Shown: one piece after another, positions 20,424 through 46,297 of the stretch | Layout of the letters: each line of letters begins with the position of its first letter | How positions within the stretch are numbered: position 1 is the first letter of the stretch | Origin: Gammaproteobacteria bacterium | GTDB lineage: Bacteria; Pseudomonadota; Gammaproteobacteria; GCA-001735895 | Reading direction: 5' to 3' | Assembly (NCBI GenBank): GCA_051277905.1 | Contig: JBNMQI010000002.1 | Span: 1-59,139 of the forward strand | Length of the DNA: 59,139 bases | Position numbers and translations under genes: made by a program | Notes under the pieces: model-generated | The model's input: the letters and a program-made list of their open reading frames with translations, nothing else | Told to the model about the DNA's origin: nothing | Databases searched by the model: none

Positions 20424-20981
20424 CTACTGAGTCTCTTCTTCTGCTAGTTTGGAAGATGTTTTTAGCATGTCAATTATCTGCGCCGTAATATCGATTTGAT
20501 TGGAGACGTAGCTCACGCCTTCTGTGAGTATCAGATCAAAACGTTCGGAATCACCTAATTTCAACAAAACGTTCGCTATCACTTTCTGTAATTCATGAAT
20601 TTCTTCGTTTCTTCTTAAATTTTGATCTTCTCTAAATTCCTGTTCTAGAAACTTTAATTGACTCACTTTGAGTCTTATTTCGCGTTCAAGTTTACGCCTT
20701 GTTTTTACAGTAATCTGAACTTCAGTGGACTTCAGTTGTTCTTCAATATCCAACACTTCCTCTCGTTTCAACTTCAATTGTGCCTCACGCGGTTTAAACT
20801 CAGCTTCTAGTCGCTCTTCGACTTTACGAGCCTGAGGTGCTTCTTTTAAAACGCGCGAGGTGTTCACAAATCCTATTTTGAAACTGTGATCAGCCGCCAA
20901 TAATATACCGTTACTGGCAAAAAGTGTCAGCACTAAAATTAGCAAGTATCTTGTCATATCGATCTTCAGAATCCTATTCAA
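20424..20981 (-). CDS. skp: OmpH/Skp periplasmic chaperone
   Basis: Signal peptide followed by a K/E/Q-rich helical body. 4-nt overlap with the bamA stop. Confidence 0.85.
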   Translation of the reverse strand: MNRILKIDMTRYLLILVLTLFASNGILLAADHSFKIGFVNTSRVLKEAPQARKVEERLEAEFKPREAQLKLKREEVLDIEEQLKSTEVQITVKTRRKLEREIRLKVSQLKFLEQEFREDQNLRRNEEIHELQKVIANVLLKLGDSERFDLILTEGVSYVSNQIDITAQIIDMLKTSSKLAEEETQ

Positions 20982-23287
20982 AACGACGCACCCAATGAGA
21001 ACTGAAAATTCTGAGTATCGTCACCTGGTTGATCATTAATTGGGAATGCATAGCTGAACTCTAGCGGACCTACCACTGAAAACCACTTCGCAGAAATCCC
21101 CGCTGACTGACGTAAATCATTGATTTCAAATGAATTACTATCTTTAAATACATTACCAGCATCAAAGTATAGCGCAAGTCGAAAGGTATCTGAACTGGCA
21201 AGTGATTCTAGAGGGAACAAAAGTTCTGTTGTCGTAGTGAACTGAACATTACCTCCAAAGGAGTCGCCATTACTATCAAGTGGACCTAAACTATTCTCTT
21301 CATAACCTCGGACAGATCGAACACCACCGGCATGGTATTTATCAAAAAATGGCATATCTGTTGTTCCACTATAACTATCACCATAGCCAATACGATTACG
21401 AAACCCAAAGGTTATTTTGTCTGTAACAGGGAAGGCAGTTTGATGCCGGTACAGAACTTTATAATAATCCAGATCACCATTAAACATTTGTAGTGAAAGG
21501 GAATTTAAATGCCCTGAATCAGCAAAAATAAGCTTGTTTCTAGTATCATTTGAAATACTCACCCCACCAAAAACACTTGTGTAGTTATTACCACTAATAT
21601 TAGCCCTATCGCTAACCTGATTATATTCACTACTATTATTAACAATAAAATCAACTATCTCAGTGGATGCTTTATTGGATATCTTAACATTATTTCGAAC
21701 GGCACCTAAACTAAAACTGAACGAATTGTATTCAGATATAGGGATACCATATGCAACTGACAGCTTAATTTGGTCCAGTAAATAATTAGCAAAGTTTTCT
21801 TCAGAAGCATCCGTTTCTCTAAAAGTCAGATAGAAACCGCGACTAACTCCGTCAGCCGTGAAGTAAGGATTCAGGTAGTTAAACCTGTATTGTTTTGTAG
21901 ACTTAGAATTATCGAACGAAAAGCCAACAGCCTTTCCAGTACCAAAAATATTGTCATGGTCGAAACCAAGAGTCAATAAAACACCCTGAGTCTGTGAATA
22001 TCCAAGGCCGACCTGAAAGCTACCCGAGAACCGCTCAACAACAGTAACTTTTAAATCGAGTAAATTATCATTTCCACTAACTGGCACAGAAACAATATCA
22101 ACCGACGCTAAAAACTTTAAGCGCTGGAGTCGAATCCGTGATCGATCAATACTACTTCCCTTATAGATAGATCCTTCAAGTTGGCGCATCTCGCGCCTTA
22201 AAACATTATCTTTACTTTTATCATTGCCAGTAAAGTTAATAGCCCTCACTGTCATCTTTCTACCCGGAGTCACTATGAATTTTAAATTAATGGATTTTTC
22301 TTCGTCATTAATATCGAGACCCGTTCTGACATCAGAAAAAGCATAACCATCCTCTCCAAAACGCTTATTCATAAGGCTAACGACTTGATTCATTTTTTTG
22401 CGCGAAAAGATATCTCCTTCCCTAAAGGTCACCAGTGCTAATAGTTCGGCTTCATCGACAACAGATTCGCCACTAATACCAATACTATTGACAGTATATT
22501 GCTCACCTTCAGTGACATTGACCGTTATATTAATGTCTTTACGATCAGGGCTAATAGATACCTGCTTAGAATCAATTTCAAAGCGCACATAACCTTTATC
22601 TAAATAAAACGACCTGAGATTTTCAAGATCACCCAACAATTTACCACTGGCATATTCGTCAGAGGCGAACCACCCTGAATCTGCAGTTTCTAGCTCGAAA
22701 TTGTCAAGTAGTGCTTTTTCACTAAATTTTTGATTACCCGTGATATTAATCGAATGTATAAGAGCAACCTCACCCTCAGAAATATTGATATCGATTTCAA
22801 CGCGATCATCGTCAAGATAGCGCCAGTCTGTAGTCAACTTGACAGCGTATTTTCCGAGAGAAAAATAAAGTTGTTGTAGTTCAAGCTCTAACCTTGACAG
22901 CTTTAATTCATTGAAAATTTTACCCCGAGTCATGCCAATCTGATCGAGTGCCTCCTCGAGATTTTCGTCTGTGAGTTTATCGTTACCTTCCACATTAACG
23001 GCAGAGATTGAAGGTCTTTCACTCACTTTAACCACTAAAGTACTCTCGTCACGCAACAACTCAACTCCATCAAAAAAACCTGTGGAGTAAAGTTCTCGGA
23101 TAAAGTAAGGAGCACTCTCAGAGTCAAATACTTCACCGACCTTAATGGGTAAATAATTTAATACAGTACCAACAGAAATTTTCTTAGCACCCACAATTTC
23201 TATCTGCTCTACATTGAAGCTATCCGCACTAGCAGTAAACACAGAAAATAACAGTGGTAAAACACTGAGCCAACCCATTAACTTCAA
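20978..23287 (-). CDS. bamA: Outer-membrane protein assembly factor BamA
   Basis: Signal peptide, POTRA repeats, C-terminal beta-barrel ending in '...FQFSLGASF'. The tracked start is TTG 23287; ATG 23278 is an alternative. Confidence 0.95.
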   Translation of the reverse strand: MKLMGWLSVLPLLFSVFTASADSFNVEQIEIVGAKKISVGTVLNYLPIKVGEVFDSESAPYFIRELYSTGFFDGVELLRDESTLVVKVSERPSISAVNVEGNDKLTDENLEEALDQIGMTRGKIFNELKLSRLELELQQLYFSLGKYAVKLTTDWRYLDDDRVEIDINISEGEVALIHSINITGNQKFSEKALLDNFELETADSGWFASDEYASGKLLGDLENLRSFYLDKGYVRFEIDSKQVSISPDRKDINITVNVTEGEQYTVNSIGISGESVVDEAELLALVTFREGDIFSRKKMNQVVSLMNKRFGEDGYAFSDVRTGLDINDEEKSINLKFIVTPGRKMTVRAINFTGNDKSKDNVLRREMRQLEGSIYKGSSIDRSRIRLQRLKFLASVDIVSVPVSGNDNLLDLKVTVVERFSGSFQVGLGYSQTQGVLLTLGFDHDNIFGTGKAVGFSFDNSKSTKQYRFNYLNPYFTADGVSRGFYLTFRETDASEENFANYLLDQIKLSVAYGIPISEYNSFSFSLGAVRNNVKISNKASTEIVDFIVNNSSEYNQVSDRANISGNNYTSVFGGVSISNDTRNKLIFADSGHLNSLSLQMFNGDLDYYKVLYRHQTAFPVTDKITFGFRNRIGYGDSYSGTTDMPFFDKYHAGGVRSVRGYEENSLGPLDSNGDSFGGNVQFTTTTELLFPLESLASSDTFRLALYFDAGNVFKDSNSFEINDLRQSAGISAKWFSVVGPLEFSYAFPINDQPGDDTQNFQFSLGASF

Positions 23288-23289
23288 AA

Positions 23290-24672
23290 TTATTCCACCA
23301 GACGCAGTAAGTCGTTATAGATAGCAATCGACATTAGCCCAAATAACAGCGCCATGCCAATTTTCTGTCCGACCAATTCAGTAGATTCTGATACCGGACT
23401 ACCTTTTATAATTTCAATCAAATAGTAAAATAAATGTCCACCATCTAAGATAGGAACAGGCAGCAGGTTTAACACGCCTAAACTAATGCTGATAATGGCA
23501 AGAAAGGTGATGAACTGCTCAACCCCGACACGGGCTGAAATTCCAGCATAACGAGCGATAGTAATCGGACCGCTCAAGTTTTTAACACTGGCTTCACCCA
23601 CTACTAATTTTCCAAGTACTTTTAAAGTCAACCACGACATCCGCCATGTTTTATCTATCGATTCACCCAGCGCATCAATTGGCCCATAGCGTTCAATCAC
23701 CTCCATTTTTTGTCGAACGTCATCAGGTATCTCAATTCGATTCATTACCCCAATAAATCCATAGCTTTCGCCCTTATCATTGCGAAGTTTAGGCGTGAGT
23801 TGAAGTGACACTTGCTGACCGCCTCTTAGTACCACGACATCAAGAGGTTTCTCTGGATTAGCTCGGATCAATTCCACCCATCGATGCACATTAGGTATCA
23901 TTTCACCGGCTAGCATGACAATTTGATCATTTGCCAACAGACCCGCAGCTTGTGCGGCACCGCCAGCAACCACTTCATCAATAACGGGTGGAATATTTGG
24001 GCGCCAAGCAGAGAAGCCTAATTCACCGATTAAATCTATTTGTTCTTTCTGCAAAAGTTGTAGTTGGCTGATATCGACTACCGTTTTCAGAATTTGAAGG
24101 TCAGCACGCTCAACTTCGATCACAATGGACTCAGCACCCACAGACTCTTCGAGCAGTGTAAAACGCGTTTTTTCCCAACTCTGAGTTTTAATACCATTGA
24201 CAGATAATATGGTGTCCTGTGATCGGATACCGGCACTGTAGGCAGGACTCGGGCTAATAACGTCACCAACCACTGGCTTAACACCAACAACACCCATCAT
24301 GTAAATAAGTGAATAGGCGGCAATGGCGAAGAGAAAGTTAAACGCTGGGCCAGCAGCGACAATGGCAAATCGTCTCCAAACGCTCTTTCGATTGAATGTT
24401 CTATCTAAATCACTTTCAGCTACGTCACCTTCACGCTCATCAAGCATTTTTACGTAACCACCTAAAGGAATACAGGCGAGGACATATTCGGTTTGGTCCG
24501 GCCCCGCTGTTTTTTTCCAAATAGGTTTTCCAAAACCGACTGAAAATCTGAGCACCTTGACACCCATTTTGCGAGCCACCCAGAAATGACCAAATTCATG
24601 GATCGTCACTAAAATGCCTATTGCCACAACAAATGCAGCAATGCTATAAAGAATAGAGACTAAGCCTTCCAT
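23290..24672 (-). CDS. rseP: RIP zinc metalloprotease RseP
   Basis: 'HEFGHFWVARKMG' HExxH motif, PDZ region, and 'NLLPVPILDGGH' motif. Confidence 0.95.
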   Translation of the reverse strand: MEGLVSILYSIAAFVVAIGILVTIHEFGHFWVARKMGVKVLRFSVGFGKPIWKKTAGPDQTEYVLACIPLGGYVKMLDEREGDVAESDLDRTFNRKSVWRRFAIVAAGPAFNFLFAIAAYSLIYMMGVVGVKPVVGDVISPSPAYSAGIRSQDTILSVNGIKTQSWEKTRFTLLEESVGAESIVIEVERADLQILKTVVDISQLQLLQKEQIDLIGELGFSAWRPNIPPVIDEVVAGGAAQAAGLLANDQIVMLAGEMIPNVHRWVELIRANPEKPLDVVVLRGGQQVSLQLTPKLRNDKGESYGFIGVMNRIEIPDDVRQKMEVIERYGPIDALGESIDKTWRMSWLTLKVLGKLVVGEASVKNLSGPITIARYAGISARVGVEQFITFLAIISISLGVLNLLPVPILDGGHLFYYLIEIIKGSPVSESTELVGQKIGMALLFGLMSIAIYNDLLRLVE

Positions 24673-31208: not shown

Positions 31209-31976
31209 ATGGCAGTCTCGATCAAAAACAGTGAAGAAATTGAAAAAATGCGTATTGCAGGCAGGCTTGCGGCAAACGTGTTGCATATGATCGAGCCTCA
31301 TGTGGTACCAGGCATCACGACCCAACAGTTGAATGACATATGCCACGACTATATCGTCAACCACCAGCAAAGCATTCCTGCACCACTCAACTATCGAGGT
31401 TTTCCACGCTCAATTTGCACCTCAGTCAATCATGTTGTTTGCCATGGTATCCCTGCGGATAAGAAGCTAAAGGCCGGTGACGTTATTAATATAGACATCA
31501 CCGTTATAAAAGATAAGTATCATGGGGATACGAGCCGCATGTTTATGGTCGGTAAACCCACCATTCAGGGTGAACGTTTGTCACGCGTCGCTTATGAATG
31601 CATGAAAATCGGTATAGAAATGATCAAGCCAGGTATTCGTCTAGGAGACATTGGCCACGCCATCCAGACTCACGCCGAAAAAAATAAGTTCAGCATCGTT
31701 CGTGAATACTGCGGTCATGGCATCGGCAATGTCTTTCATGAAGACCCCCAAGTATTACATTACGGCAAGCCAGATACTGGACTCCGGTTAGAGCCAGGTA
31801 TGATTTTCACCATTGAGCCCATGCTAAATCTAGGAAAACGTCATGTTAAATTACTACCCGATGATTGGACTGTTGTCACTAAAGACCATAGTCTGTCAGC
31901 CCAGTGGGAGCATACAAACCTAGTCACTGAAGATGGTTTTGAAGTACTCACTGAGCATCCAGACAAGCCGTTGTAA
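31209..31976 (+). CDS. map: Type I methionine aminopeptidase
   Basis: 'VCHGIP', 'DITVIKDKYHGDTSRMF', 'YCGHGIG', 'FTIEPM', 'AQWEHT' metal ligand motifs. Confidence 0.95.
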   Translation: MAVSIKNSEEIEKMRIAGRLAANVLHMIEPHVVPGITTQQLNDICHDYIVNHQQSIPAPLNYRGFPRSICTSVNHVVCHGIPADKKLKAGDVINIDITVIKDKYHGDTSRMFMVGKPTIQGERLSRVAYECMKIGIEMIKPGIRLGDIGHAIQTHAEKNKFSIVREYCGHGIGNVFHEDPQVLHYGKPDTGLRLEPGMIFTIEPMLNLGKRHVKLLPDDWTVVTKDHSLSAQWEHTNLVTEDGFEVLTEHPDKPL

Positions 31977-31978
31977 TC

Positions 31979-34663
31979 ATGACAAGTGACGTTTCAAACA
32001 ATAGCATGACTGATATGCTGTCTGAAATCAGCCATTGCCTAACGAGAATAAAAACACCCCAAGGGATTATTGCAAAGCCTGTAACAGACGGTCTCAATCG
32101 AACGAACGAGCAACTTTACGCTGCTTTCGATCAGGGCGTGCCTATCCAGACACTTGTAAGTCAAAAATCGAAAGTCATTGATCATGTTTTGCACTTTTGT
32201 TTTGACAGCTTCATTTATCATACTCAAGAATGCCAATGCAGCCTAGTTGCTGTGGGTGGTTATGGTCGATCAGAATTACTCCCCGGATCAGACATTGACT
32301 TGATGGTGCTATTGAGCCAAAAACCCGATAAAACATTAGAAAACGAATTATCCCGTTTTATTACATTTTTATGGGATATCGGCCTCGAAGTGGGCCACAG
32401 CGTTCGGACTGTTGACGACTGTATCGTGCAAGGCAAGGCAGATGTGACCGTCATTACCAATATGATTGAAGCTCGACTCATTTGTGGTGATGAAAACTTA
32501 TATGAACGTTTTCAGCAGGCGATTGAGCCAAGCAAAATGTGGTCATCTCGCGAGTTTTTTGAAGCCAAGCTAAAGGAACAAGAAATCCGTCATATGCGCT
32601 ATAACGATACCGCATACAATCTTGAACCTAACATTAAAGAGGGTCCAGGTGGATTACGCGATATTCAAATTGTAGGCTGGGTCGCTAAACGTCACTTTGG
32701 TACCAGAACCTATTTAGAGCTGATTGATAGAGAGTTTATTACCGCAGATGAATACCAGTTAATAGAAGCGGGACAACGTCATTTGTGGAAGGTCAGGTTT
32801 GCATTACATCGACTGGCAAAAAGACGCGAAGACAGACTCTTATTCGATTATCAAAATCAAATTTCGATTGATTTTGGATTTGAAGCAGGACCACATAATC
32901 TCGCAATAGAACAATTCATGCAGCAATACTATCGAACCATTATGGAGCTCGAGCGCCTGAATGAGATGCTATTACAAATATTCAGAGAAGAAATTTTATT
33001 TGCCGACACTAAAAAGCAAACCAGTGTCATCAATGATCGGTTCATGCTGCGAAACAACTATATTGAAGTGAGGCATGCCGATGTATTTAAACAACACCCT
33101 CCGGCTCTAATCGAACTGTTTGTTTTAATTTCGTCCCACTCAGACTGTGAAGGGGTTAGTGCATCAACCATCAGGTTAATCCGTGAGCACCTTTATTTAG
33201 TGGACGATAGCTTTCGAAACAATGATGAAGTTAAGCATCTATTTATGCAGTTAATGAGTGGGACAAATGGCGTCACACATCAAATGCGACGGATGAATTC
33301 CTATGGTTTTCTGGCCGCCTACATCCCTGCTTTTGAAAAAATCACAGGCCGCATGCAGTATGATTTATTCCATGCCTATACGGTCGACCAACACACCATT
33401 TTTGTCATTAGAAACCTACGCCGTTTTGCACTCGAAATACATGAAGATGAATTTCCGTTTTGTAATTTGGTTTTTAACAAACTAGAAGACCCAAAATTAC
33501 TTTATCTTGCTGCGCTATTCCACGATATAGCCAAGGGACAGGGTGGCAGTCACTCCGTTCTAGGTGCTGAAATAGCCACTCAGTTTTGCTTGCAGCATAA
33601 TCTAAATGCCAAAGAAACCCGTATCGTATCGCAGTTAGTGCGTAACCATTTATTAATGTCTGTAACGGCACAACGCAAGGACATCAGTGACCCCGATGTT
33701 GTGCGCGAGTTTGCTCAACAAGTTGGCAGTATGAATATGCTCAATTATCTCTACCTACACACCGTTGCAGATATACGCAGCACCAACCCAAAGCTATGGA
33801 ATAACTGGAAAGACGCCCTATTCCAGCAGCTTTACACCGCAACTAAAAATGTCATTCGACGCGGTATTAAAAATGCGCCAGATATCGGAGAGATTATTCA
33901 AGAAAATAAAGATGCGGCATTTGAATTAATGCTGGACCTACCTTACAACCAGCAAGCTATTATTGATCAATGCGACCAATTACCTGGGGACTATTTTTTA
34001 CGCCATCATCCGCTCGAAATCCGTTGGCATGTAGACACCATACTGGGCAGTCCAGAGCAGTCAACACTAGTCAGAGTTCGTCAGGCGACGCATTCAAAAA
34101 CGACCAAAGTATTTGTTTACTGTGACGAAAACCCCAACGTTTTTTCTCAGGTCACCGGCGCCCTCGGTTCACTTGGATTGAGTATTTTAAATGCGGAAAT
34201 ATTCACCACTAAAAACGATAAAATTATGGATACATTTATTATCCAAGATCACGACAGCCAGTCAATCACAGAGCCATCAATCGTTAAACAAATAGAAGAA
34301 GCACTAATAAAAGCATTTAAGTCAAATACTATCTATAAGCCAGTTATCAATAACCGCAGACACCGCCATCAAAAGGCTTTTAATCACCCCACTCAAATTC
34401 AATTTGAACAGGACACGGTCAACCAGCGAACTGTGATGGAAATTACGGCAATGGATATGCCTGGCATGTTGTCGACGATTTCAAACGTAATCGCCCTCAA
34501 TTCGATCAATATTACCCATGCAAAAATTTCTACTTTAGGCGAAAGAGTGAATGATATTTTTTTCTTGGTTACACCTGATGGCAAAAATATTACCGACCAG
34601 TCAGCCTTGGATATACTAGAATCTCAGATTATTAAAGGCATCGCCGATATCAACCCAAAGTAA
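31979..34663 (+). CDS. glnD: Bifunctional [protein-PII] uridylyltransferase/uridylyl-removing enzyme
   Basis: Nucleotidyltransferase motif 'GGYGRSELLPGSDIDL', HD domain 'LAALFHDIAKG', two C-terminal ACT-like segments. 894 aa. Confidence 0.95.
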   Translation: MTSDVSNNSMTDMLSEISHCLTRIKTPQGIIAKPVTDGLNRTNEQLYAAFDQGVPIQTLVSQKSKVIDHVLHFCFDSFIYHTQECQCSLVAVGGYGRSELLPGSDIDLMVLLSQKPDKTLENELSRFITFLWDIGLEVGHSVRTVDDCIVQGKADVTVITNMIEARLICGDENLYERFQQAIEPSKMWSSREFFEAKLKEQEIRHMRYNDTAYNLEPNIKEGPGGLRDIQIVGWVAKRHFGTRTYLELIDREFITADEYQLIEAGQRHLWKVRFALHRLAKRREDRLLFDYQNQISIDFGFEAGPHNLAIEQFMQQYYRTIMELERLNEMLLQIFREEILFADTKKQTSVINDRFMLRNNYIEVRHADVFKQHPPALIELFVLISSHSDCEGVSASTIRLIREHLYLVDDSFRNNDEVKHLFMQLMSGTNGVTHQMRRMNSYGFLAAYIPAFEKITGRMQYDLFHAYTVDQHTIFVIRNLRRFALEIHEDEFPFCNLVFNKLEDPKLLYLAALFHDIAKGQGGSHSVLGAEIATQFCLQHNLNAKETRIVSQLVRNHLLMSVTAQRKDISDPDVVREFAQQVGSMNMLNYLYLHTVADIRSTNPKLWNNWKDALFQQLYTATKNVIRRGIKNAPDIGEIIQENKDAAFELMLDLPYNQQAIIDQCDQLPGDYFLRHHPLEIRWHVDTILGSPEQSTLVRVRQATHSKTTKVFVYCDENPNVFSQVTGALGSLGLSILNAEIFTTKNDKIMDTFIIQDHDSQSITEPSIVKQIEEALIKAFKSNTIYKPVINNRRHRHQKAFNHPTQIQFEQDTVNQRTVMEITAMDMPGMLSTISNVIALNSINITHAKISTLGERVNDIFFLVTPDGKNITDQSALDILESQIIKGIADINPK

Positions 34664-34700: not shown

Positions 34701-35918
34701 TTAGGAGACATTAAAAGGACTGTCTATTGACTCACTTGGCTCTGTAAACCAGCGTGGCCCGCTATCTGAAATGTACGCGTGGTCTTCGAGGCGCACGCCA
34801 AATTCGCCATAACTACAAATCATAGGCTCAATCGAAAAACACATCCCAGGAGCTAAGGGTAAATCATTGCCTTTGACAATATAAGGATGCTCATGGACGT
34901 CAAGTCCCACACCATGTCCAGTTCGATGCGGCAAACCAGGCACTTTATAATCAGGGCCATACCCAGCCGCTACAATGACGGCCCGCGCAGCATCATCGGG
35001 TGCTGAACAAGCGGCTCCAATTTGCGCTGCATCAAAAGCGGCTTGCTGCGCCGCATGCTCTAACGACCAGATTTCTCTCTGCCTTGCATTGGGTTCACCG
35101 AATACATAACTGCGTGTAATGTCTGAATTATAGCCATGTAAGGTTGCCCCGGTATCGATTAGCACCATGTCATTTTCAGCCAAGATTTGTGGATATGAAA
35201 CACCATGTGGATAAGCTGTCGGCTCACCAAACAAAACAATTTTAAAGGTTGAACGGCCATCCATTCCACTGGCGATATGCGCTGCATCCAAAAACGACTG
35301 TACATCACGGGTATCGATACCCGTCTCAAGAATACACGCCACTGACTGCTGAACATTCAGTGTGATTGCCTTGGCCTGAGTTAGTAATGAAATTTCAGCT
35401 TGTGACTTAATCTGACGACAAGGCCATATCAAACTATCTGCATTAACAATTACTAGTTTTGATGACGATTTTTGCAACCCATCAACAATAAAAAATGGGG
35501 TTTGTGGATCAACAGCCAATTGAGCAACATTTGTTTTGGATCGAATTAAAACGGTTTCAGCGACAGCTGCCATAGGATTTTCGTGCTCCTCCCACAACAG
35601 AAATTCACCCTCAACCACCATAGCTGCTTTCGTTTTTTGTTCTTCAAAGGTCGGACAAACATAAATTAAATCACCCGATACCGTTAATATTGCACCGTGC
35701 AATCTCTCACTCGCATAACATTGCATGCCGGTGAAGTAACGTAAACTGCTGGTAGCATCTAAGTAAAGCGCATCAATACCTGACGCCAACATCAGTGACC
35801 GCACTTTTTCTAGACGCGCCAGATATTCATCCATTTGAATAGGGACTGCTTTATCTCGAGCAGACTTGAGTTTGGCTAATTCTATTGCGGCACTACTGCC
35901 GCCGATTCCAATCGTCAT
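34701..35918 (-). CDS. M24-family metallopeptidase (Xaa-Pro peptidase/creatinase-like fold)
   Basis: Pita-bread metal ligands 'VLIDTGA...YNSDITR', 'HRTGHGVGLDVHE', 'FSIEPM', 'VRLEDH'. The N-terminal creatinase-like domain is present. Confidence 0.8.
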   Translation of the reverse strand: MTIGIGGSSAAIELAKLKSARDKAVPIQMDEYLARLEKVRSLMLASGIDALYLDATSSLRYFTGMQCYASERLHGAILTVSGDLIYVCPTFEEQKTKAAMVVEGEFLLWEEHENPMAAVAETVLIRSKTNVAQLAVDPQTPFFIVDGLQKSSSKLVIVNADSLIWPCRQIKSQAEISLLTQAKAITLNVQQSVACILETGIDTRDVQSFLDAAHIASGMDGRSTFKIVLFGEPTAYPHGVSYPQILAENDMVLIDTGATLHGYNSDITRSYVFGEPNARQREIWSLEHAAQQAAFDAAQIGAACSAPDDAARAVIVAAGYGPDYKVPGLPHRTGHGVGLDVHEHPYIVKGNDLPLAPGMCFSIEPMICSYGEFGVRLEDHAYISDSGPRWFTEPSESIDSPFNVS

Positions 35919-36479
35919 TTGTATTTATCCTAGGTTAGCTAACGTCAAATAGGGTTAACACTTAGTAACTATTGTAACAAATCAATTTATGAATGTGTCA
36001 TGGAAAAAGGGACACTACTAGATAAATAACACTCATTGGGCAGTTGTCTCTAAACCAAAGAAAATAAAAGTCAGATTGACTGCCATCCTTCCAAATCAAA
36101 TGAAAGCTAGTTTCTTGCTGGCAGACTGATTGCAACCTAGGTAAAGGGTTAGGGGCTGACAACATGACCTATACTCCGCTAAAAATCGGAAATAAATCTT
36201 TATAGGATCAATATATTAACTAACTAACTAAGTCCTTTAAAAAAATGAATGACAAAACTTCAAAACAACTTCGAACCTTTTCAATGGTGGTTAGAGCCAC
36301 TGTGTTTTTGGCCGTAATCAAATAAATACAATGGTCTTCATAGAGGTGACGATTGATTTAAACTAGGGTAAAAGGACACGCCATGAGCACAGAACCATTA
36401 TACCGCAAAGCTGGGTATCGATTTAAAGTCTCGACTACTATAAACTGATTGATAGCGACAACAATACAGGTTTTGTTCA

Positions 36480-37427
36480 ATGGATTTAAAACGTTTGCTC
36501 ACCAGTCTTAGCTCACAAATACTATTTCAGCTCGTAATAATCGTTTTCTTAATCATTATCGGCATCGGTTGGAATTTCGATTTTATTTATTCGTTTTACT
36601 TCGAGAACCAGCAAACTCAAACTGGCGTTATTATTAATAGTTCGATCTTCGCCCTATTCTTTTTTGGCATGTCCAATATCGTTTATCACTTGGTTCGCTA
36701 TAAGCAGGAAGAACGTGCAATTGCACAGCTTGCTAACAATATAGAGTCACTCACAACAGACCTAATGCAGGGTCTTGACGGAGACTCCATCGTCGCCAAA
36801 CGCTATTGGATTCTAAAATCAATTCAAAAAGTAAATGGTGAAATAAACCATAGCGCTCTTTCGGCCATGCTCACCGCCGATGAAGGTACAAAATTTGGTT
36901 TAATACGCTACATTAATAACATACTAATATTGACAGGTGTCTTCGGCACCATCGTATCACTATCAATCGCCTTACTCGGCGCATCAGATCTAATCGATTC
37001 TGCAGCTGGTAGCCTTGGTGGCATGGGTCTGGTCATTCACGGCATGTCGACAGCCTTATCGACTACTATTACCGCTATCGTTAGTTATGTCTTATTTGGC
37101 TACTTTTATACACGCCTTAATGACGTACAAACGCACTTTTTAAGTGGTATCGAGCAGATCACTTCAATTTATTTACTACCCCAGTTTGTAGCGGGTAATG
37201 ATGACATTGTGCATAAAACAACTGACTTGATAAAGTCAGTTGTTTTCGCCACTAATAATTTAAAGAAAACTCAAGACATTTATCATACTTCTGCGATGTT
37301 ATTACAAGAGACGATCGAACTAAATCGAGTGCAAATAGAAAAACTCTCGACTGAGTTACAAGACATCAAATCGATCCTTCGCGAAGGCTTTCGTCTTCCA
37401 GCTCTGGCTCAAAACGATGACGAATAA
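36480..37427 (+). CDS. MotA/TolQ/ExbB-family ion-channel protein (4 TM) with a ~105-aa helical C-terminal tail
   Basis: Two N-terminal TM helices, a ~65-aa loop, then two TM helices carrying family-like signatures 'ILTGVFGTIVSLSIAL' and 'GMSTALSTTITAIVSYV'. A helical tail follows. The call rests on motif and topology only. Confidence 0.6.
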   Translation: MDLKRLLTSLSSQILFQLVIIVFLIIIGIGWNFDFIYSFYFENQQTQTGVIINSSIFALFFFGMSNIVYHLVRYKQEERAIAQLANNIESLTTDLMQGLDGDSIVAKRYWILKSIQKVNGEINHSALSAMLTADEGTKFGLIRYINNILILTGVFGTIVSLSIALLGASDLIDSAAGSLGGMGLVIHGMSTALSTTITAIVSYVLFGYFYTRLNDVQTHFLSGIEQITSIYLLPQFVAGNDDIVHKTTDLIKSVVFATNNLKKTQDIYHTSAMLLQETIELNRVQIEKLSTELQDIKSILREGFRLPALAQNDDE

Positions 37428-37441
37428 GTCTAGGCAAAGCC

Positions 37442-38437
37442 GTGAATTCTAGCTTCTCGCCCATAGGACAAAACCAAACCAATAGCAATGGTGAAGGCAG
37501 CTTCTGGCCATCATTTACTGATATTATGATGGTAATCACGATGATTTTTCTAATGGCAACCAGCCTGTTAGTCGTGCGTAATTGGCAATTAGTCGCCGAA
37601 TTACGTGAAAGTGTAGCGGCGGAACAAGTTGCATCACAACTCATTGAATCAACCTTTTTGGAAAATTTGACACTAGAAGAACGTCTCGTCAATGCGGAGC
37701 AAACTAACTCAATCCTACGGCTTAGATTACTGAAAAAAGATGAGAAATTACAAATCGTCAACAATTCTCTACGCCAACAAAAATTTTATACAGATGCCAT
37801 ACTGGCAGAAAACAAGCGATTAAAAACTGATCTCAATGCATCGTTGTCTTTGCTTGCGCTTACAAATACCGAAATTGACACGATTAAAACGCAGAAAAAT
37901 ATGCTCAATGTCGAGGTTTCAACACTAGAGCGACAGTTATTATTATCCGATGCTGAACAAGAAAAATTAGCCCTGCAAATGGCTAAAGTTCAATCCGAAA
38001 TTGTAGCATCAAAGCTATCGCAGCAAAAAAATATTGCCGATCTGATGCAACAAAAACAGCTACTGATGTCAGAAATAGTCGGCTATAACCAACAAGTCCA
38101 AACATTAAAAAGTGACTATACAATCGTTAAAACAAAATATGACAAATTAGTCAGGCCAGCACGATCAGCTAAAGGCAAATATATCGCGGAAGTTTATTAC
38201 TACATTAATGACGCTGACGGGGAAGTTATTCGCTACAAACAACCGGGCGATACTCAGTTTATTGACCTCTCGCTGGCTGAAGTAGAAAAACGTTTGGCTA
38301 GACTAAAGCAAGAAAAAGGCAATGACCTGTACGTCAAAGTGATTATCCCAAATGACAGTGGACTAACCTATAACGAAGCCTGGGAGTTCATGCGTAAACT
38401 GCTGGCAAAATACGATTACTACTACCAAGTGAACTAA
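37442..38437 (+). CDS. ExbD/TolR/MotB-like single-pass partner with a ~185-aa coiled-coil stalk and an ExbD-like C-terminal domain
   Basis: GTG start 15 nt after the upstream stop. TM helix 'FWPSFTDIMMVITMIFLMAT' carries the conserved Asp. It is followed by a Q/L/K/E-rich segment with no Pro and one Gly. The C-terminus 'YIAEVYYYINDADGEVI...LYVKVIIPNDSGLTYNEAWEFMRKL' matches the ExbD/TolR beta-alpha-beta pattern. Confidence 0.55.
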   Translation: MNSSFSPIGQNQTNSNGEGSFWPSFTDIMMVITMIFLMATSLLVVRNWQLVAELRESVAAEQVASQLIESTFLENLTLEERLVNAEQTNSILRLRLLKKDEKLQIVNNSLRQQKFYTDAILAENKRLKTDLNASLSLLALTNTEIDTIKTQKNMLNVEVSTLERQLLLSDAEQEKLALQMAKVQSEIVASKLSQQKNIADLMQQKQLLMSEIVGYNQQVQTLKSDYTIVKTKYDKLVRPARSAKGKYIAEVYYYINDADGEVIRYKQPGDTQFIDLSLAEVEKRLARLKQEKGNDLYVKVIIPNDSGLTYNEAWEFMRKLLAKYDYYYQVN

Positions 38438-38461
38438 ACTAGCTGATACAATTAGTATTCT

Positions 38462-38538
38462 GTCCCCGTAGCTCAGCTGGATAGAGCAGCCGCCTCCTAA
38501 GCGGCAGGTCGGATGTTCGAATCATCTCGGGGACGCCA
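38462..38538 (+). tRNA. tRNA-Arg (anticodon CCU), CCA encoded
   Basis: Cloverleaf folded by hand. Acceptor stem gtccccg/cggggac, D-arm gctc...gagc, anticodon stem gccgc/gcggc with loop ctCCTaa, T-arm ggatg-ttcgaat-catct, discriminator g, then cca. Confidence 0.93.
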
Positions 38539-38705
38539 TTATTGAGTCTAAACAATCCTAGTTGGCTATCGTTTAAGTCACTATATGCCAAAACATAAGA
38601 ACTTCACTTAGGTCAGCTTTGGACTTTCCTTCAACTTTTAGGCCACCCATCGAATTATTTAGCAGGCTGAAATCATTTCTGTTATAAAACAGAAAGAGCA
38701 TTCGA

Positions 38706-38728
38706 ATCGACTGTTTCGATGTTTTTTT
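38706..38728 (+). terminator. Weak terminator-like hairpin plus T7 run downstream of tRNA-Arg
   Basis: atcga-ctgtt-tcgat followed by gTTTTTTT. The stem is only 5 bp, so confidence is low. Confidence 0.3.
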
Positions 38729-39114
38729 AGGCAACGACAAGTCCTAAAGCTGCCCCATTAGACTAATACACCTCTAAAACGCCAAGCTGCTTTGTATCTT
38801 GTCGACTATAATTATTTATCTAGTAGATCTCATGAAGGCTATATTGGTAATTTATCAGGTGAATTAACCATTTACGGGCTAGAAAACTTGCCTAGCGAGT
38901 TGAAGATTCATTCGGATGTTAAACACAGTCATGACTATGTTGTTGATCAGCGCAGCTTCCAATATTTTGTTATTCATAAGGAAAACAACCTTTCATTACC
39001 TTTACTTTCACTTGAATTAGTAGGATGCATCCTACACATAAATAGGAAAAGTACTACGACTTATTACCCCTCACATCAAGATTACTTATCAAGTTCAATT
39101 TAAATTACCCCATT

Positions 39115-40473
39115 CTAACTATAAATTTGACTAGCCCAGCGAGTTAAACCTGCCGTAACACTGCCAAAGTGATCACCGACAACAATAGGGGTCTGCTCAA
39201 ACTGTTGCTGCAAGAACCTATTAATTACAGGTGATTTTGCTGTGCCACCCGTAACAAAGACAACGTCAGGCTCGCAGTTGGCTTGTTTAATAGCCTCTTT
39301 CATTAAGCCAGCAATGGTCGTTAGTTCACGCTGGCAGGCGGATGAAAAGTCTATCTGCTGGAGCGTTATTGATAAATCGTCGTCAATATCAAATAAATCC
39401 GTTTGATGTTGGTCATTATCCGTTAGGGCAACTTTACTTTGCTCGGCAGCATTCACCACTCGGTAGCTGAGCTTTTGCTGCTGTATCGTCAACAATCGGG
39501 ATATAAACGCCGGCTGTTCAGCGTCACGAATGAGCTGCTTTATGACCCGGCCATTGGCACTGCTATAGAACTCGGTTTGGTCGTTAATATTGTTAATCGC
39601 CATTGCTTTCCAAAAGCTGTTGACTGGGATCGGCTTGCCCGTTTTAAAATGGCTATTTAAACCAAAGCTGGGCATAAACTTATTTAACGCTAACGCTATG
39701 TCGAAGTCATTGCCCCCAACACGCTCGCCACTGTGGCTAAGAAAATGTTGACCTCGATCAGTTTGAACAGCCTGTTTTGGTCCCATTAGTAGCATCGAGC
39801 AATCGGTTGTTCCACCGCCAATATCAACCACCAGAACTTTAGTCTCATGAGTTAAATTGGATTCATATTCAAAGCCTGCTGCTACCGGCTCGTATTGAAA
39901 CTCAACGTCTTTGAACCCGACCCGCTTTGCTGCTTTAGTTAATATTTCAATGGCTTGCTGATTACTTTGTTCGCTTCGCAAGCCCTGAAAGTTGATAGGT
40001 CGTCCAATCACTGCTTGAGAAATCGTTTTTCCGAGTGTTGCTTCGGCAAGGGTTTTTATATGGCTCATCATCGAAGCGACGATGTCTTCGAACAATTCAA
40101 TTTGAATAGGCACTAAACCACTAGCACCTAGAAACGATTTAGGAGATTTAATATAGTAGCCTTCTTCTGGCTCTTGTAAGTAGTCAGCTAAAGCCTGTTG
40201 TCCAAAAGACAGCTCAGTTGGGTACCCGTCTAACTCAAGCTCCCTTAACGTATTCTGTCCTCTTTCTAACTGGGGTTGCCGCTGAAGCTGAAATATTTTT
40301 TGCTCAGCCACAGTCAAGTGTTGATACAACCAATTGACAATAACATCTCGACTAGGGGCATAAAGCGTCGAAGCAACATACTGTCCATGATCGCCCAGAG
40401 ATATAATTTTCGGCAGGTTACTGTCCATTATGCCGACAGCGCAATTAGAGGTGCCGTAGTCAAAACCAATCAT
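39115..40473 (-). CDS. yegD: Hsp70-family protein YegD
   Basis: 'MIGFDYGTSNCAVG', 'KSPKSFLGASGL', 'AVIGRPINFQG', 'VLVVDIGGGTTDCSMLLMGP', 'FGSVTAGLTRWA'. It is colinear with E. coli YegD as I remember it. Confidence 0.85.
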   Translation of the reverse strand: MIGFDYGTSNCAVGIMDSNLPKIISLGDHGQYVASTLYAPSRDVIVNWLYQHLTVAEQKIFQLQRQPQLERGQNTLRELELDGYPTELSFGQQALADYLQEPEEGYYIKSPKSFLGASGLVPIQIELFEDIVASMMSHIKTLAEATLGKTISQAVIGRPINFQGLRSEQSNQQAIEILTKAAKRVGFKDVEFQYEPVAAGFEYESNLTHETKVLVVDIGGGTTDCSMLLMGPKQAVQTDRGQHFLSHSGERVGGNDFDIALALNKFMPSFGLNSHFKTGKPIPVNSFWKAMAINNINDQTEFYSSANGRVIKQLIRDAEQPAFISRLLTIQQQKLSYRVVNAAEQSKVALTDNDQHQTDLFDIDDDLSITLQQIDFSSACQRELTTIAGLMKEAIKQANCEPDVVFVTGGTAKSPVINRFLQQQFEQTPIVVGDHFGSVTAGLTRWASQIYS

Positions 40474-40674: not shown

Positions 40675-42339
<1,665 letters not shown>

Positions 42340-43816: not shown

Positions 43817-46297
43817 ATGATTATTTTAAAGATCTTCATAAAAAGACCACTAATAGTCTGTTTGTTGTTCCTGTTGATCGCTATGCCTTTTATCGCGTCA
43901 GCTTTACAAAACGATGAACTGCTGAAGCCTGAACAAGCCTTCCAGTTAACGGCCAAGATAGAAGGTAATAGCCTTATTGCCGAGTATGACATTGCGACTG
44001 GATACTATATGTATCGTAAGAGTTTCAAGTTCGATATTGAAACCAAGGGCGCTAGCTTTGCTAACCCAGTCATACCTGAGGGCAAAGTTAAACGAGACGA
44101 ATTTTTTGGTGAAGTCGAAACCTATCGCGATAGCCTTAGAATCGAACTACCGTTTCTTATCGACGGCCTCATTGACGGCCTCATTAGCGATTCATCACTT
44201 ATTACACTCAGAGTAAAGGCGACGGGGCAGGGTTGCGCAGATATTGGCATTTGTTATCCACCGCTTGATCAACTCTTGATTGTTTCAATTGGCTCTAACC
44301 AAACCATTAGAGCGATGCCTTATACGGCAACATCTGTTAATGCCCAAACCAGTCAGCTTAATACAGCCGAAAACCCTTCAGCATTGCAAAACTTGCTTTC
44401 AAGTAAAAACCCTCAAGCATTGCAACAAACTAATACTTTTTCTTCAGTTTTAACATCGAATACAAACGCTGCCTCAGAACTCCAATCATTGGATGGACTC
44501 ATTGGTTTAGATAATGAGGATGAAATCCCACATTTTGACCGCGCCTTCATGCTAACTGCAGAGTTAGCCTCGAATGATCGAATCGATACCCAAATCACTA
44601 TAATACCAACGGGTTACCTTTATAAAGACACTGTTAATATTGAGTTGGTCGATGGCAATGGTCATTCCATTAGTCCATTAACCAAACCCGCTGGTGATGA
44701 AAAAAATGATGAATTCTTCGGTTTGACCGAGGTTTATCATGATAGCTTAAAACTGTCCATTCCAATATCTTCCTCAGCCAATGCCTCTGTGAGTTATACG
44801 CTGGCTTATAGCTATCAGGGTTGCATTGAAGATCGCATTTGTTATCCACCTATTACCAAATACCTCAAGGTTAATGGCAATAGGGTTAGTATTTCAGATC
44901 AACCACCCGAGGCATTGCAGTCCAATGTCAACCCTTCGCCTATGCCGGTGGCATCTCAGTCGGAGCAAGACCAATACGCACAGTTATTGCTGCAAGATAA
45001 AAGTCTTTTTCTGGTTATCTGGCTATTCTTTTTGGCAGGTTTAGCGCTAACTTTTACACCCTGTGTGTTTCCGATGATTCCTATTTTATCGAGCATAATT
45101 GCTGGTCAAGGTGACAAGGTCAGTACCCGCAGCGCCTTTACGTTATCACTGATTTATGTTCTCTCTATGGCAGTTACCTATGCTTTTATTGGCGCCATTG
45201 TTGGCTATTACGGTGCTGAATACAATATCCAAATTTGGTTTCAGGACCCTATTATCCTTAGTATCTTTGCTGCCATATTTGTACTGCTGGCACTATCCAT
45301 GTTTGGCTTTTACGACCTTCAAATGCCCAGTGCAATTCAGAACCGCCTCACTTCGTTCAGTCGTAATCAATCGGGCGGTTCATTCGTCAGTGTTGGGTTG
45401 ATGGGCTTTTTCTCAGCTATTATTGTTGGCCCCTGTATTACCGCACCGCTGGTCGGTGCATTATTATTTATATCCCAAACACAGGATTGGCAGTTGGGCG
45501 GACTTGCTCTGTTTGCATTAGGTATTGGTATGGGTACCCCTTTGTTGTTGATTGGCACATCAGCGGGTAAGTTCTTGCCTCGTGTCGGTAGTTGGATGGA
45601 TACTGTCAAATCAGTGTTTGGTGTTGTGATGCTGGCCATGGCGATTTGGTTACTCGAGAGAATCCTGCCTACTTCAGCCACTATGGCGCTCATTGCCATG
45701 CTGACCATCACCTCTGCTATCTATATGGGCGCGCTGGAAAAGCTACCGCAGTCAACCAGCGGCTGGCGCAAATTATGTAAAGCCCTTGGGATTATTCTAC
45801 TGCTTTACGGTGCAGCTCATCTAATCGGTGCGGTGTCTGGTAGCAAAGACTTGGTACAACCGTTAAAGGGCATTGCCAGCGGCATGATATCAGGTGAATT
45901 ATCAAACCAAACCAATGACAGTCAAGTGGGGCATATCAATTTTAAACTCATTAAGGGTTCTGAAGGCTTAAAAAATGCCTTAAGAGAATCTGTAGCTGAA
46001 AACAAAACGACCATGCTCGACTTTTATGCTGACTGGTGTGTCTCTTGCAAAGTAATGGAGAGGGATGTCTTTACAGACCCCGATGTTTTGGCGTCATTGG
46101 ATCGAGTGATTACACTTCAAGCGGATGTAACGGCCAACGATTCGATTGACTCGGCCCTTATGAATTCACTCGGCATCTATGGTCCACCAGCCATACTGTT
46201 TTTTGACCATAATGGTCTTGAAATAAGAAACCGCCGAGTCGTAGGTGAAATGTCAGGTGAAGACTTTGCCGCTCATGTCGAGTCAACTTTTGATTAA
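43817..46297 (+). CDS. dsbD: Thiol:disulfide interchange protein DsbD with tandem N-terminal (nDsbD-like) domains
   Basis: Signal peptide; two nDsbD-like modules each ending in a Cys pair ('GQGCADIGICYPP', 'YQGCIEDRICYPP'); TM core with 'TPCVFPM' and 'GPCITAP'; C-terminal thioredoxin 'WCVSCK'. 826 aa, against ~565 aa for E. coli DsbD from memory. Confidence 0.9.
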   Translation: MIILKIFIKRPLIVCLLFLLIAMPFIASALQNDELLKPEQAFQLTAKIEGNSLIAEYDIATGYYMYRKSFKFDIETKGASFANPVIPEGKVKRDEFFGEVETYRDSLRIELPFLIDGLIDGLISDSSLITLRVKATGQGCADIGICYPPLDQLLIVSIGSNQTIRAMPYTATSVNAQTSQLNTAENPSALQNLLSSKNPQALQQTNTFSSVLTSNTNAASELQSLDGLIGLDNEDEIPHFDRAFMLTAELASNDRIDTQITIIPTGYLYKDTVNIELVDGNGHSISPLTKPAGDEKNDEFFGLTEVYHDSLKLSIPISSSANASVSYTLAYSYQGCIEDRICYPPITKYLKVNGNRVSISDQPPEALQSNVNPSPMPVASQSEQDQYAQLLLQDKSLFLVIWLFFLAGLALTFTPCVFPMIPILSSIIAGQGDKVSTRSAFTLSLIYVLSMAVTYAFIGAIVGYYGAEYNIQIWFQDPIILSIFAAIFVLLALSMFGFYDLQMPSAIQNRLTSFSRNQSGGSFVSVGLMGFFSAIIVGPCITAPLVGALLFISQTQDWQLGGLALFALGIGMGTPLLLIGTSAGKFLPRVGSWMDTVKSVFGVVMLAMAIWLLERILPTSATMALIAMLTITSAIYMGALEKLPQSTSGWRKLCKALGIILLLYGAAHLIGAVSGSKDLVQPLKGIASGMISGELSNQTNDSQVGHINFKLIKGSEGLKNALRESVAENKTTMLDFYADWCVSCKVMERDVFTDPDVLASLDRVITLQADVTANDSIDSALMNSLGIYGPPAILFFDHNGLEIRNRRVVGEMSGEDFAAHVESTFD

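Follow-up and report, generated by a model that had tools for sequence, protein, structure and literature searches.

The 59,139-nucleotide (nt) stretch of gammaproteobacterial DNA analysed here (contig JBNMQI010000002.1; hereafter the window) carries two adjacent genes, A and B, which on balance probably encode an ion-driven membrane complex of the MotAB/ExbBD/TolQR/ZorAB type. This two-gene system is inherited chromosomally and would constitute a distinct and unannotated family. Gene A (positions 36480-37427, forward strand) is an open reading frame (ORF) of 315 amino acids (aa) with an ATG start, and gene B (37442-38437, forward strand) is an ORF of 331 aa that begins with GTG, 14 nt after the stop codon of A; the N-terminus of the GTG-started B protein is conserved among its homologues. 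A first-pass annotation of this DNA had singled out the pair as a candidate undescribed ion-motor system, and the ORFs, their shared orientation and the peptides it quoted are all present where it placed them. Ion-driven motors of 5:2 stoichiometry power flagella, nutrient import, envelope maintenance, gliding and phage defence, and each new family of such motors has revealed another way to couple rotation to work.

Gene A encodes a divergent channel subunit of the MotA/ExbB type with four membrane helices. The window protein matches PF01618 (MotA_ExbB) over residues 137-221 with an expectation value (E) of 0.004 and a score of 17.3 bits, and the same family is matched by all 33 aligned members of the A family, down to 41% identity (best E = 8.4e-6); the divergent A protein of locus L084, at 25.9 bits, clears the curated threshold of this family (22.9 bits). 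The AlphaFold2 model of A is all-helical with four membrane helices (predicted local distance difference test score, pLDDT, of 70). When this model was compared with the PDB using Foldseek, the best 26 matches were all ExbB, TolQ, ZorA or MotA chains (probability 0.97-1.00, E = 2e-3 to 0.07, target-normalised template modelling score 0.40-0.60). Together with the PF01618 matches, these results agree with the earlier assignment of A to the MotA/TolQ/ExbB fold class. The channel core of the protein lies in residues 137-212 (36888-37115, forward strand), which comprise membrane helix 3, a periplasmic loop and membrane helix 4, align with PF01618 positions 44-122 and contain the motifs ILILTGVFGT and GMSTALSTTITAI. 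Conservation in A is highest in helices 3 and 4 (mean column conservation 0.87-0.89), and G153, G156, T157, S190, A192, S194, T195 and T196 are invariant across the 33 sequences, again down to 41% identity. The conserved Gly/Thr and A-L-x-T-T type motifs of these two helices probably face the membrane-embedded aspartate of B.

Gene B encodes a MotB/ZorB-like single-pass subunit with a coiled-coil stalk and a novel C-terminal domain. Its membrane helix, FWPSFTDIMMVITMIFLM, occupies residues 21-45 (37502-37576, forward strand) and contains Asp27 (codon at 37520-37522). This aspartate, within the motif FWPSFTDIMMV, is invariant in 207 of 207 sequences, in keeping with the single membrane helix and invariant acidic residue described in the first-pass annotation. 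The same annotation had likened this helix to that of ExbD, a comparison that did not hold up: the family profile of B matches instead the ZorB chain of the Shewanella type I ZorAB complex (8vvn_B; residues 13-70, E = 5e-5) as well as the MotB-like chain 8vvi_A (E = 1.3e-3), and B is also matched by the ZorB models of PADLOC (E = 9e-5 and 1e-4) and by NCBIfam ZorB1 (E = 0.003). Only the membrane helix aligns when B is compared with ExbD and TolR of E. coli (P = 1.4e-3), and the ion-binding segment of B is therefore MotB/ZorB-like rather than ExbD-like. The helix is followed by a conserved helical neck (RNWQLVAELRES...NATLEERL...ILRLRLL; residues 46-100, 37577-37741, forward strand), the first third of which, to residue 70, falls within the ZorB-aligned part of the protein. 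Column conservation averages 0.71 in the neck, 0.43 in the stalk and 0.68 in the C-terminal head. Neither OmpA nor MotB_plug is listed among the Pfam families of the window B protein, among the 25 families most matched by 30 members of the family or among the 24 families listed for head sequences, and profile searches of the PDB with B and with its head returned no OmpA-like chain; B is thus devoid of an OmpA/MotB-type peptidoglycan-binding domain, as had been noted earlier.

Between neck and head, residues 101-236 of B (37742-38149, forward strand) form a coiled-coil stalk of variable length, recognised by its heptad pattern and by the quantisation of its length, which is presumably periplasmic. 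Residues 24-238 are free of proline (the prolines of B lie solely at positions 7, 23, 239, 268 and 303), G214 is the sole glycine between G19 and G245, and residues 50-235 include 32 leucines, 19 glutamines, 17 glutamates and 17 lysines. In a windowed test the local heptad contrast at positions a and d exceeds that of shuffled sequence (z = 3.6), while a global Fourier test over the whole stalk is not significant because of register shifts within it, one of which lies near residue 180 in the window protein. The sequence of the stalk is poorly conserved among homologues, yet it is always helical and proline-free.

The lengths of the stalk are also informative about its structure. In 277 B sequences the stalk, taken as the distance between the membrane-helix motif and the P-A-R-S/T motif, has 54 distinct lengths, ranging from 164 to 427 residues. 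Modulo 7, 21 of these lengths are congruent to 3 and 17 to 0, so that 38 of the 54 fall into two classes (chi-square against a uniform distribution, p = 4e-9), and they include the unbroken series 164, 171, 178, 185, 192, 199, 206, 213, 220, 227, 234, 241, 248, 255, 262 and 269. The window stalk, at 217 residues, belongs to class 0 and differs from the common 220-residue class by a deletion of 3 residues that coincides with the register shift near residue 180. Steps of a single heptad indicate a continuous, in-register parallel coiled coil and speak against a hairpin, and the two modulo-7 classes indicate that the angular phase between membrane helix and head is conserved, as would be expected for a mechanical shaft or for a tether of precise orientation. 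The heptad-like helical region noticed in the first-pass annotation, with no proline and one glycine, is thus a true heptad coiled coil, as judged by both the a/d contrast and the length quantisation. At approximately 0.15 nm per residue, the window stalk would span about 28 nm (some 190 residues), the commonest stalks 26-29 nm and the full range about 21-60 nm; the earlier description of a stalk of periplasmic length therefore fits the window protein and the commonest lengths, but the stalk is not a strict ruler across the family.

The C-terminal head of B is an alpha/beta domain (residues 237-331; 38150-38434, forward strand) with the motifs KPARSAKGK, LYVKIIIPxDSGLSYNEAW and KYDYYYQ. In a search of 1.84 billion representative proteins, a head profile matched only 364 clusters (50% identity) at E <= 1e-3, 328 of them at E <= 1e-10, and the search gave no tail of weaker matches bridging to the very large ExbD/TolR family. 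Among the best 150 clusters the head is always C-terminal, whether the protein is as long as 538 aa or a shorter fragment. The head gave no consistent or significant match to a Pfam family, and none in PDB profile searches or with Foldseek, the last using an AlphaFold2 model with a pLDDT of 59 and the secondary-structure order beta-beta-alpha-beta-alpha. Homology of the head to ExbD/TolR is unproven, as Pfam, PDB profile and Foldseek searches and hhalign comparisons with ExbD and TolR of E. coli and Serratia were all non-significant. PF02472 is listed neither for the window B protein nor among the 25 families most matched by 30 full-length B proteins; it was matched by 1 of 21 isolated heads, at a noise-level E of 0.018, and hhalign placed the elements alpha1-beta3-alpha2 of the head in the register expected for ExbD/TolR at P ~0.05. 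A protein search with an ExbD/TolR profile returned near-identical enterobacterial ExbD only and did not improve this test. We therefore treat the head as specific to the A-B family and its resemblance to ExbD/TolR as a tentative lead: of the earlier proposal that the last ~95 residues follow the ExbD/TolR pattern, the compatible order of secondary-structure elements in the model (pLDDT 59) stands, and no search returned a significant match.

The remaining part of A, residues 213-315 (37116-37424, forward strand), is a helical cytoplasmic tail, with long helices at residues 180-236 and 240-304 of the model. It ends in the near-invariant sequence L-R-E-G-F-R-L-P (residues 300-307, nt 37377-37400; conservation 0.92). 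From the GYFY motif to the REGFRL motif the tail measures 94 residues in 158 of 191 sequences, with variants of 118-119 and 137 residues that arise from insertions of helical repeats; tail length shows no heptad quantisation, the variants being too few to judge. In one clade, A proteins of 357 aa (L008:4002-5075, L033, L035, L038 and L060) carry a tandem helical duplication of 42-43 residues in the tail, and three Cellvibrionaceae-like loci (L044, L051 and L066) carry insertions of 24-25 residues. Genomes with a lengthened A tail also show repeat expansions of the B stalk, although such joint lengthening fails in other lineages. Co-variation of the two lengths (Pearson r = 0.79 in 80 loci) was accordingly rejected as a general rule, given pairs such as A 314/B 497, A 293/B 277 and A 294-309/B 393-449 aa. 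An apparent 783-aa 'fused' A at L067 (3343-5694) was dismissed as an ORF-calling artefact, a long high-GC open frame overlapping real genes; the true A of this locus starts at MIEFDTRY.

Both genes have numerous homologues, more than 3100 for A and 1683 for B at E <= 1e-3. Identity to the window protein is 59-96% for the best 120 A homologues and 48-99% for the best 120 B homologues. We scanned one genome per GTDB species and found relatives in 160 stretches, the best 80 of which were used for locus statistics. In 76 of these 80 loci A is followed directly by B, with a gap of -44 to +18 nt (mostly -4 to +18); the remaining 4 are without a recognisable B ORF, and in at least 3 of them a contig end lies within ~0.5-1 kb of A. 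In six additional, divergent lineages A is again directly upstream of B, mostly with a 4-nt overlap. Because homologues are numerous and the adjacency of A and B is kept in 76 of 80 genomes, the pair does not consist of chance ORFs. The best 80 loci come almost entirely from metagenome-assembled genomes labelled Gammaproteobacteria, among them the Olavius Gamma 3 symbiont and members of the Cellvibrionaceae, Pseudohongiellaceae, Thiohalomonadaceae, Chromatiales and Thiotrichales, with a few contigs binned elsewhere. Carrier genomes (at least 160 at the species level) are almost all labelled Gammaproteobacteria and come from uncultured organisms of marine, sediment or symbiont sources; the one cultured carrier found is Thiohalomonas denitrificans (WP_303907393.1 in RefSeq, annotated 'hypothetical protein').

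Pfam, NCBIfam, PADLOC and RefSeq give the family no name, in line with the first-pass view of the pair as a candidate undescribed system, and full-text literature searches and review-type papers yielded no description of the family or of its architecture. Homologues that bear a name in databases are almost always called 'hypothetical protein', B sometimes having an automatic coiled-coil label. Such labels, 'chromosome segregation ATPase', 'EnvC' and 'myosin' among them, and weak B matches to DUF3450 and other coiled-coil Pfam families, were set aside as coiled-coil noise. Another motor family is unsurprising in itself, because recent surveys note many uncharacterised non-flagellar motor homologues with diverse appendages (PMC12505986).

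The pair belongs to the MotA/ExbB-type motor superfamily, but it is a member of none of MotAB, ZorAB, Zorya, ExbBD/TolQR or GldLM. Its closest resemblance in B is to ZorAB, the core of Zorya, as represented by the type I system of Shewanella sp. ANA-3 (PDB 8vvn): ZorB is the best match to the N-terminus of B, its membrane helix and the helix that follows, and ZorA, chains of which are among the structural matches of A, resembles A in its four membrane helices and in its helical cytoplasmic tail, which varies in length. Unlike ZorAB, however, B has no OmpA-type domain, and the long coiled coil of the pair is on B and probably periplasmic, whereas that of ZorA is cytoplasmic. The A tail has ~100 residues against several hundred in ZorA, the ZorA models of PADLOC do not match A, and, unlike Zorya, the pair has no ZorC-, ZorD- or ZorE-like neighbours and is found in a vertically inherited housekeeping setting. 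ExbB and TolQ are the top structural matches of A, with which A shares a compact cytoplasmic domain, and B resembles ExbD and TolR in being small and single-pass, in having the aspartate, in lacking an OmpA domain and in the compatible order of its head. In contrast to these systems, A has an extra N-terminal membrane hairpin (four helices versus three in ExbB/TolQ), B has ~190 residues of heptad coiled coil between the helix and a head that is not detectably homologous, and no TonB or TolA gene is adjacent in the 80 loci or in the divergent loci. MotAB and PomAB share the four-helix topology of A, and the W-x-x-F-x-D-x-M motif of B resembles the MotB helix; B differs from MotB in having no OmpA-like domain, the cytoplasmic loop of A is only ~65 residues long, there are no flagellar genes nearby, and the structural matches of A place MotA after ExbB and TolQ. 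In concept, the pair is like GldLM and PorLM, where the two-copy subunit is itself the elongated element that spans the periplasm, with no separate adaptor. The periplasmic part of GldM consists of globular domains rather than a coiled coil, and its charged membrane residues differ from those of B. GldLM is also encoded with other type IX secretion genes, and the GldL, GldM and PorM families are absent from the Pfam and NCBIfam listings for A and B.

These comparisons suggest how the complex could work. Its composition is most likely five A subunits around two B subunits, and by analogy with its relatives it may rotate. Protons or sodium ions would pass between Asp27 of B and helices 3 and 4 of A, which are rich in Thr/Ser, and this flow would make the A ring rotate against the B dimer. 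The neck of B may sit on the conserved periplasmic loops of A, with the parallel, in-register shaft projecting the head outward to engage a distal layer of the envelope, either peptidoglycan or the outer membrane. The shaft would then fix the motor to this layer or carry force or torque to it, and the cytoplasmic tail of A, with its REGFRLP tip, could act as a cytoplasmic output or anchoring element. Such a motor would need no separate TonB- or TolA-like adaptor, because B itself would supply neck, shaft and head. More specifically, and as a tentative possibility that we hold with much less confidence than the existence of a distinct ion-driven family, the pair could be a self-contained trans-envelope motor whose coiled coil serves as a rigid driveshaft or tether to peptidoglycan or the outer membrane via the new head, in place of a TonB-, TolA- or GldM-type adaptor, and which may serve outer-membrane or lipid homeostasis. 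A role in envelope or lipid upkeep is weakly hinted at by two of the gene neighbours described below, an mlaC-family gene in one clade and a cyclopropane-fatty-acid synthase gene.

The family merits study as it is widespread, strongly conserved and completely unannotated. In B, an ion-binding helix of the MotB/ZorB type is joined to a phase-conserved coiled-coil shaft and a novel head, a combination that no solved or curated family matched. With only two genes, the pair is a simple system in which to ask how the periplasm is crossed by torque or force, and in which natural variation of stalk length by whole heptads amounts to a built-in ruler experiment.

Several observations weigh against this picture. 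The PF01618 score of the window A protein, 17.3 bits, falls under the 22.9-bit threshold, its Foldseek E-values are modest (2e-3 to 0.1) for a model of pLDDT 70, and a search of the PDB with the A profile, using sequence only, returned no MotA/ExbB chain but coiled-coil noise alone; the A family is therefore distant from every solved member. The charges flanking the membrane helix of B do not clearly fit the positive-inside rule, as the N-terminus lacks lysine and arginine and Arg46 follows the helix, and the orientation of B in the membrane is predicted from homology. Homology is likewise the basis on which the 5:2 stoichiometry and rotation are proposed, and the binding partners suggested for the B head and the A tail are also conjectural. 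Straight stalks of up to ~400 residues (60 nm) exceed any normal periplasm. Finally, the lipid-related neighbours of the pair are clade-specific.

Other explanations of the same data were considered. The pair could be a paralogue of ExbBD/TolQR that uses a TonB/TolA-like adaptor encoded elsewhere, the stalk being merely a long linker. This reading draws on the ranking of ExbB and TolQ as the best structural matches of A, on the ExbD register of the head in hhalign (alpha1-beta3-alpha2, P ~0.05) and the single PF02472 match among 21 heads (E = 0.018), and on the common occurrence of TonB genes that are unlinked from exbBD (PMC12204202). We nonetheless regard it as quite unlikely, since A has four helices rather than three, the membrane motif of B is nearer to those of ZorB and MotB, PF02472 is not among the families most matched by 30 full-length B proteins, the 364 clusters found with the head profile offer no bridge to ExbD/TolR, a TonB or TolA gene adjoins the pair in none of ~90 loci, and a heptad-quantised shaft of 140-400 residues is no passive linker. 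B could also be inverted, with its N-terminus outside and its coiled coil in the cytoplasm beside the A tails, as part of a filament or scaffold. The cytoplasm would accommodate stalks of up to 60 nm more readily than the periplasm does, the first 20 residues of B are without lysine or arginine and a near-invariant Arg46 follows the helix, and A tail and B stalk are both longer in some clades. However, the homologous segment of ZorB and MotB has its N-terminus inside, the aspartate is found at the same helix end in B and in MotB, ExbD likewise has an acidic cytoplasmic N-terminus, and the co-variation of lengths fails (A 314/B 497; A 294-309/B 393-449), making this arrangement very improbable.

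Two further explanations take their lead from the similarity to Zorya. In one, the pair is an envelope sensor, the head of which monitors the distance or state of peptidoglycan or the outer membrane and gates ion flow, while the A tail, by rotating or shifting, signals to an unlinked cytoplasmic target, in a Zorya-like but housekeeping manner. The N-terminal region of B is most like ZorB, and the helical A tail with its conserved tip recalls ZorA. The plug helix of MotB lies where the conserved neck of B lies, so the neck could gate the channel. We consider a sensor unlikely, though it is the best of these alternatives, as none of the lineages has an effector or regulator gene linked to the pair and the A tail, mostly fixed at ~94 residues, is far shorter than that of ZorA and is missed by the PADLOC ZorA models. 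In the other, the pair is a Zorya-type or other anti-phage module whose effectors have been lost or are encoded elsewhere, to which the weak ZorB matches in PADLOC and NCBIfam and the ZorA chains among the Foldseek matches lend some colour. A defence module is hardly credible given that the pair is set among core genes (glnD, map, bamA, rseP, groEL and dsbD), its synteny tracks phylogeny, its sequence conservation is very high and it was not found in plasmid, phage or viral-contig collections, and given that there is no ZorA match, no ZorC-, ZorD- or ZorE-like neighbour and no anomaly in G+C content. The interpretation we prefer remains that of a distinct ion-driven complex formed by A and B.

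Examination of gene neighbours indicates that this complex is encoded autonomously. None of ~90 loci of many lineages has a TonB, TolA, flagellar or ZorC/D gene adjoining the pair, which confirms and extends what had been noted for the window. A conserved third gene was sought by clustering the neighbours in 80 loci; the clustering gave clade-level synteny only, no gene being present in all clades, and the genes that flank the pair in the window are shared by its nearest relatives only. Neighbours conserved at the clade level include CBS, cystathionine lyase, an MR/MLE enzyme, cyclopropane-fatty-acid synthase, Tgt/QueA, ThiC, PCMT, P-II and RlmD, the cyclopropane-fatty-acid synthase gene being a frequent neighbour of the pair. 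The flanks of the divergent lineages are mutually unrelated, with CysS and a PPIase in one case and, in others, MnmG, a permease, a transglutaminase and MoxR, an EamA transporter and a radical-SAM enzyme, or a GldG-type ABC transporter. The last of these, at L084:8882-13461, comprises a GldA/GldF/GldG-like ABC transporter and a DUF4340 gene 47 nt past B on the same strand, and was seen in one lineage, that with the shortest stalk (A of 293 aa, B of 277 aa).

The pair had been called an orphan, which is accurate for the window but not for one clade. There, an mlaC-family gene (PF05494, with a signal peptide) lies upstream of A on the same strand, at a distance of 9-52 nt in 12 loci (L046-L063) and 37 nt in L081 (L046:5284-5955; L081:2405-3022), and it appears to form a clade-specific three-gene operon with A and B. 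There is no trace of an mlaC-family gene in the window. Searches of plasmid, phage and viral-contig collections found no homologues of A, and an origin in a mobile element or defence system was rejected on these grounds. The pair is chromosomal and vertically inherited, among housekeeping genes.

In the window, the pair sits within a classic gammaproteobacterial core region, and its G+C content (0.39-0.41) lies within the range of its flanks (0.36-0.48). The immediate neighbours are those reported in the first-pass annotation. An M24 peptidase (Creatinase_N and Peptidase_M24; 34701-35918) is encoded on the opposite strand, with GlnD upstream of it, as confirmed via precomputed Pfam matches on an identical contig, and it is followed by an intergenic region of ~560 bp (35919-36479, given on the forward strand) in which the promoter of an A-B operon is presumed to lie. 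This gap contains no ORF of at least 60 aa and no Rfam match, no promoter-like site was found in it, and matches to consensus promoters across 35800-39200 are no more numerous than in shuffled sequence. An ORF of 55 aa on the minus strand (~35998-36165), which has no Pfam match, is called in metagenome contigs with an identical A and the same gene order. On the other side, a tRNA-Arg(CCT) gene (38462-38538, forward strand) starts 24 nt past the B stop codon; because no terminator-like site was found between the two, read-through from A-B into the tRNA is possible. Between this tRNA and a yegD-like gene is an ORF of 103 aa with a TTG start (38792-39103, forward strand). It has no Pfam match, but one metagenome contig (L088) has it among its called genes.

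The wider window has the content of a core chromosome, with BamA, RseP, Map, the M24 peptidase, a YegD-like Hsp70 and DsbD confirmed by Pfam, and segments of the core region at 20978-24672 (minus strand), 31209-34663 (plus), 40675-42333 (minus) and 43817-46297 (plus). Judged from its translation, the 552-aa ORF at 40675-42333 on the minus strand reads as GroEL, and by size and order the genes between 24672 and 30985 resemble the dxr-cdsA-uppS-frr-pyrH-tsf-rpsB block.

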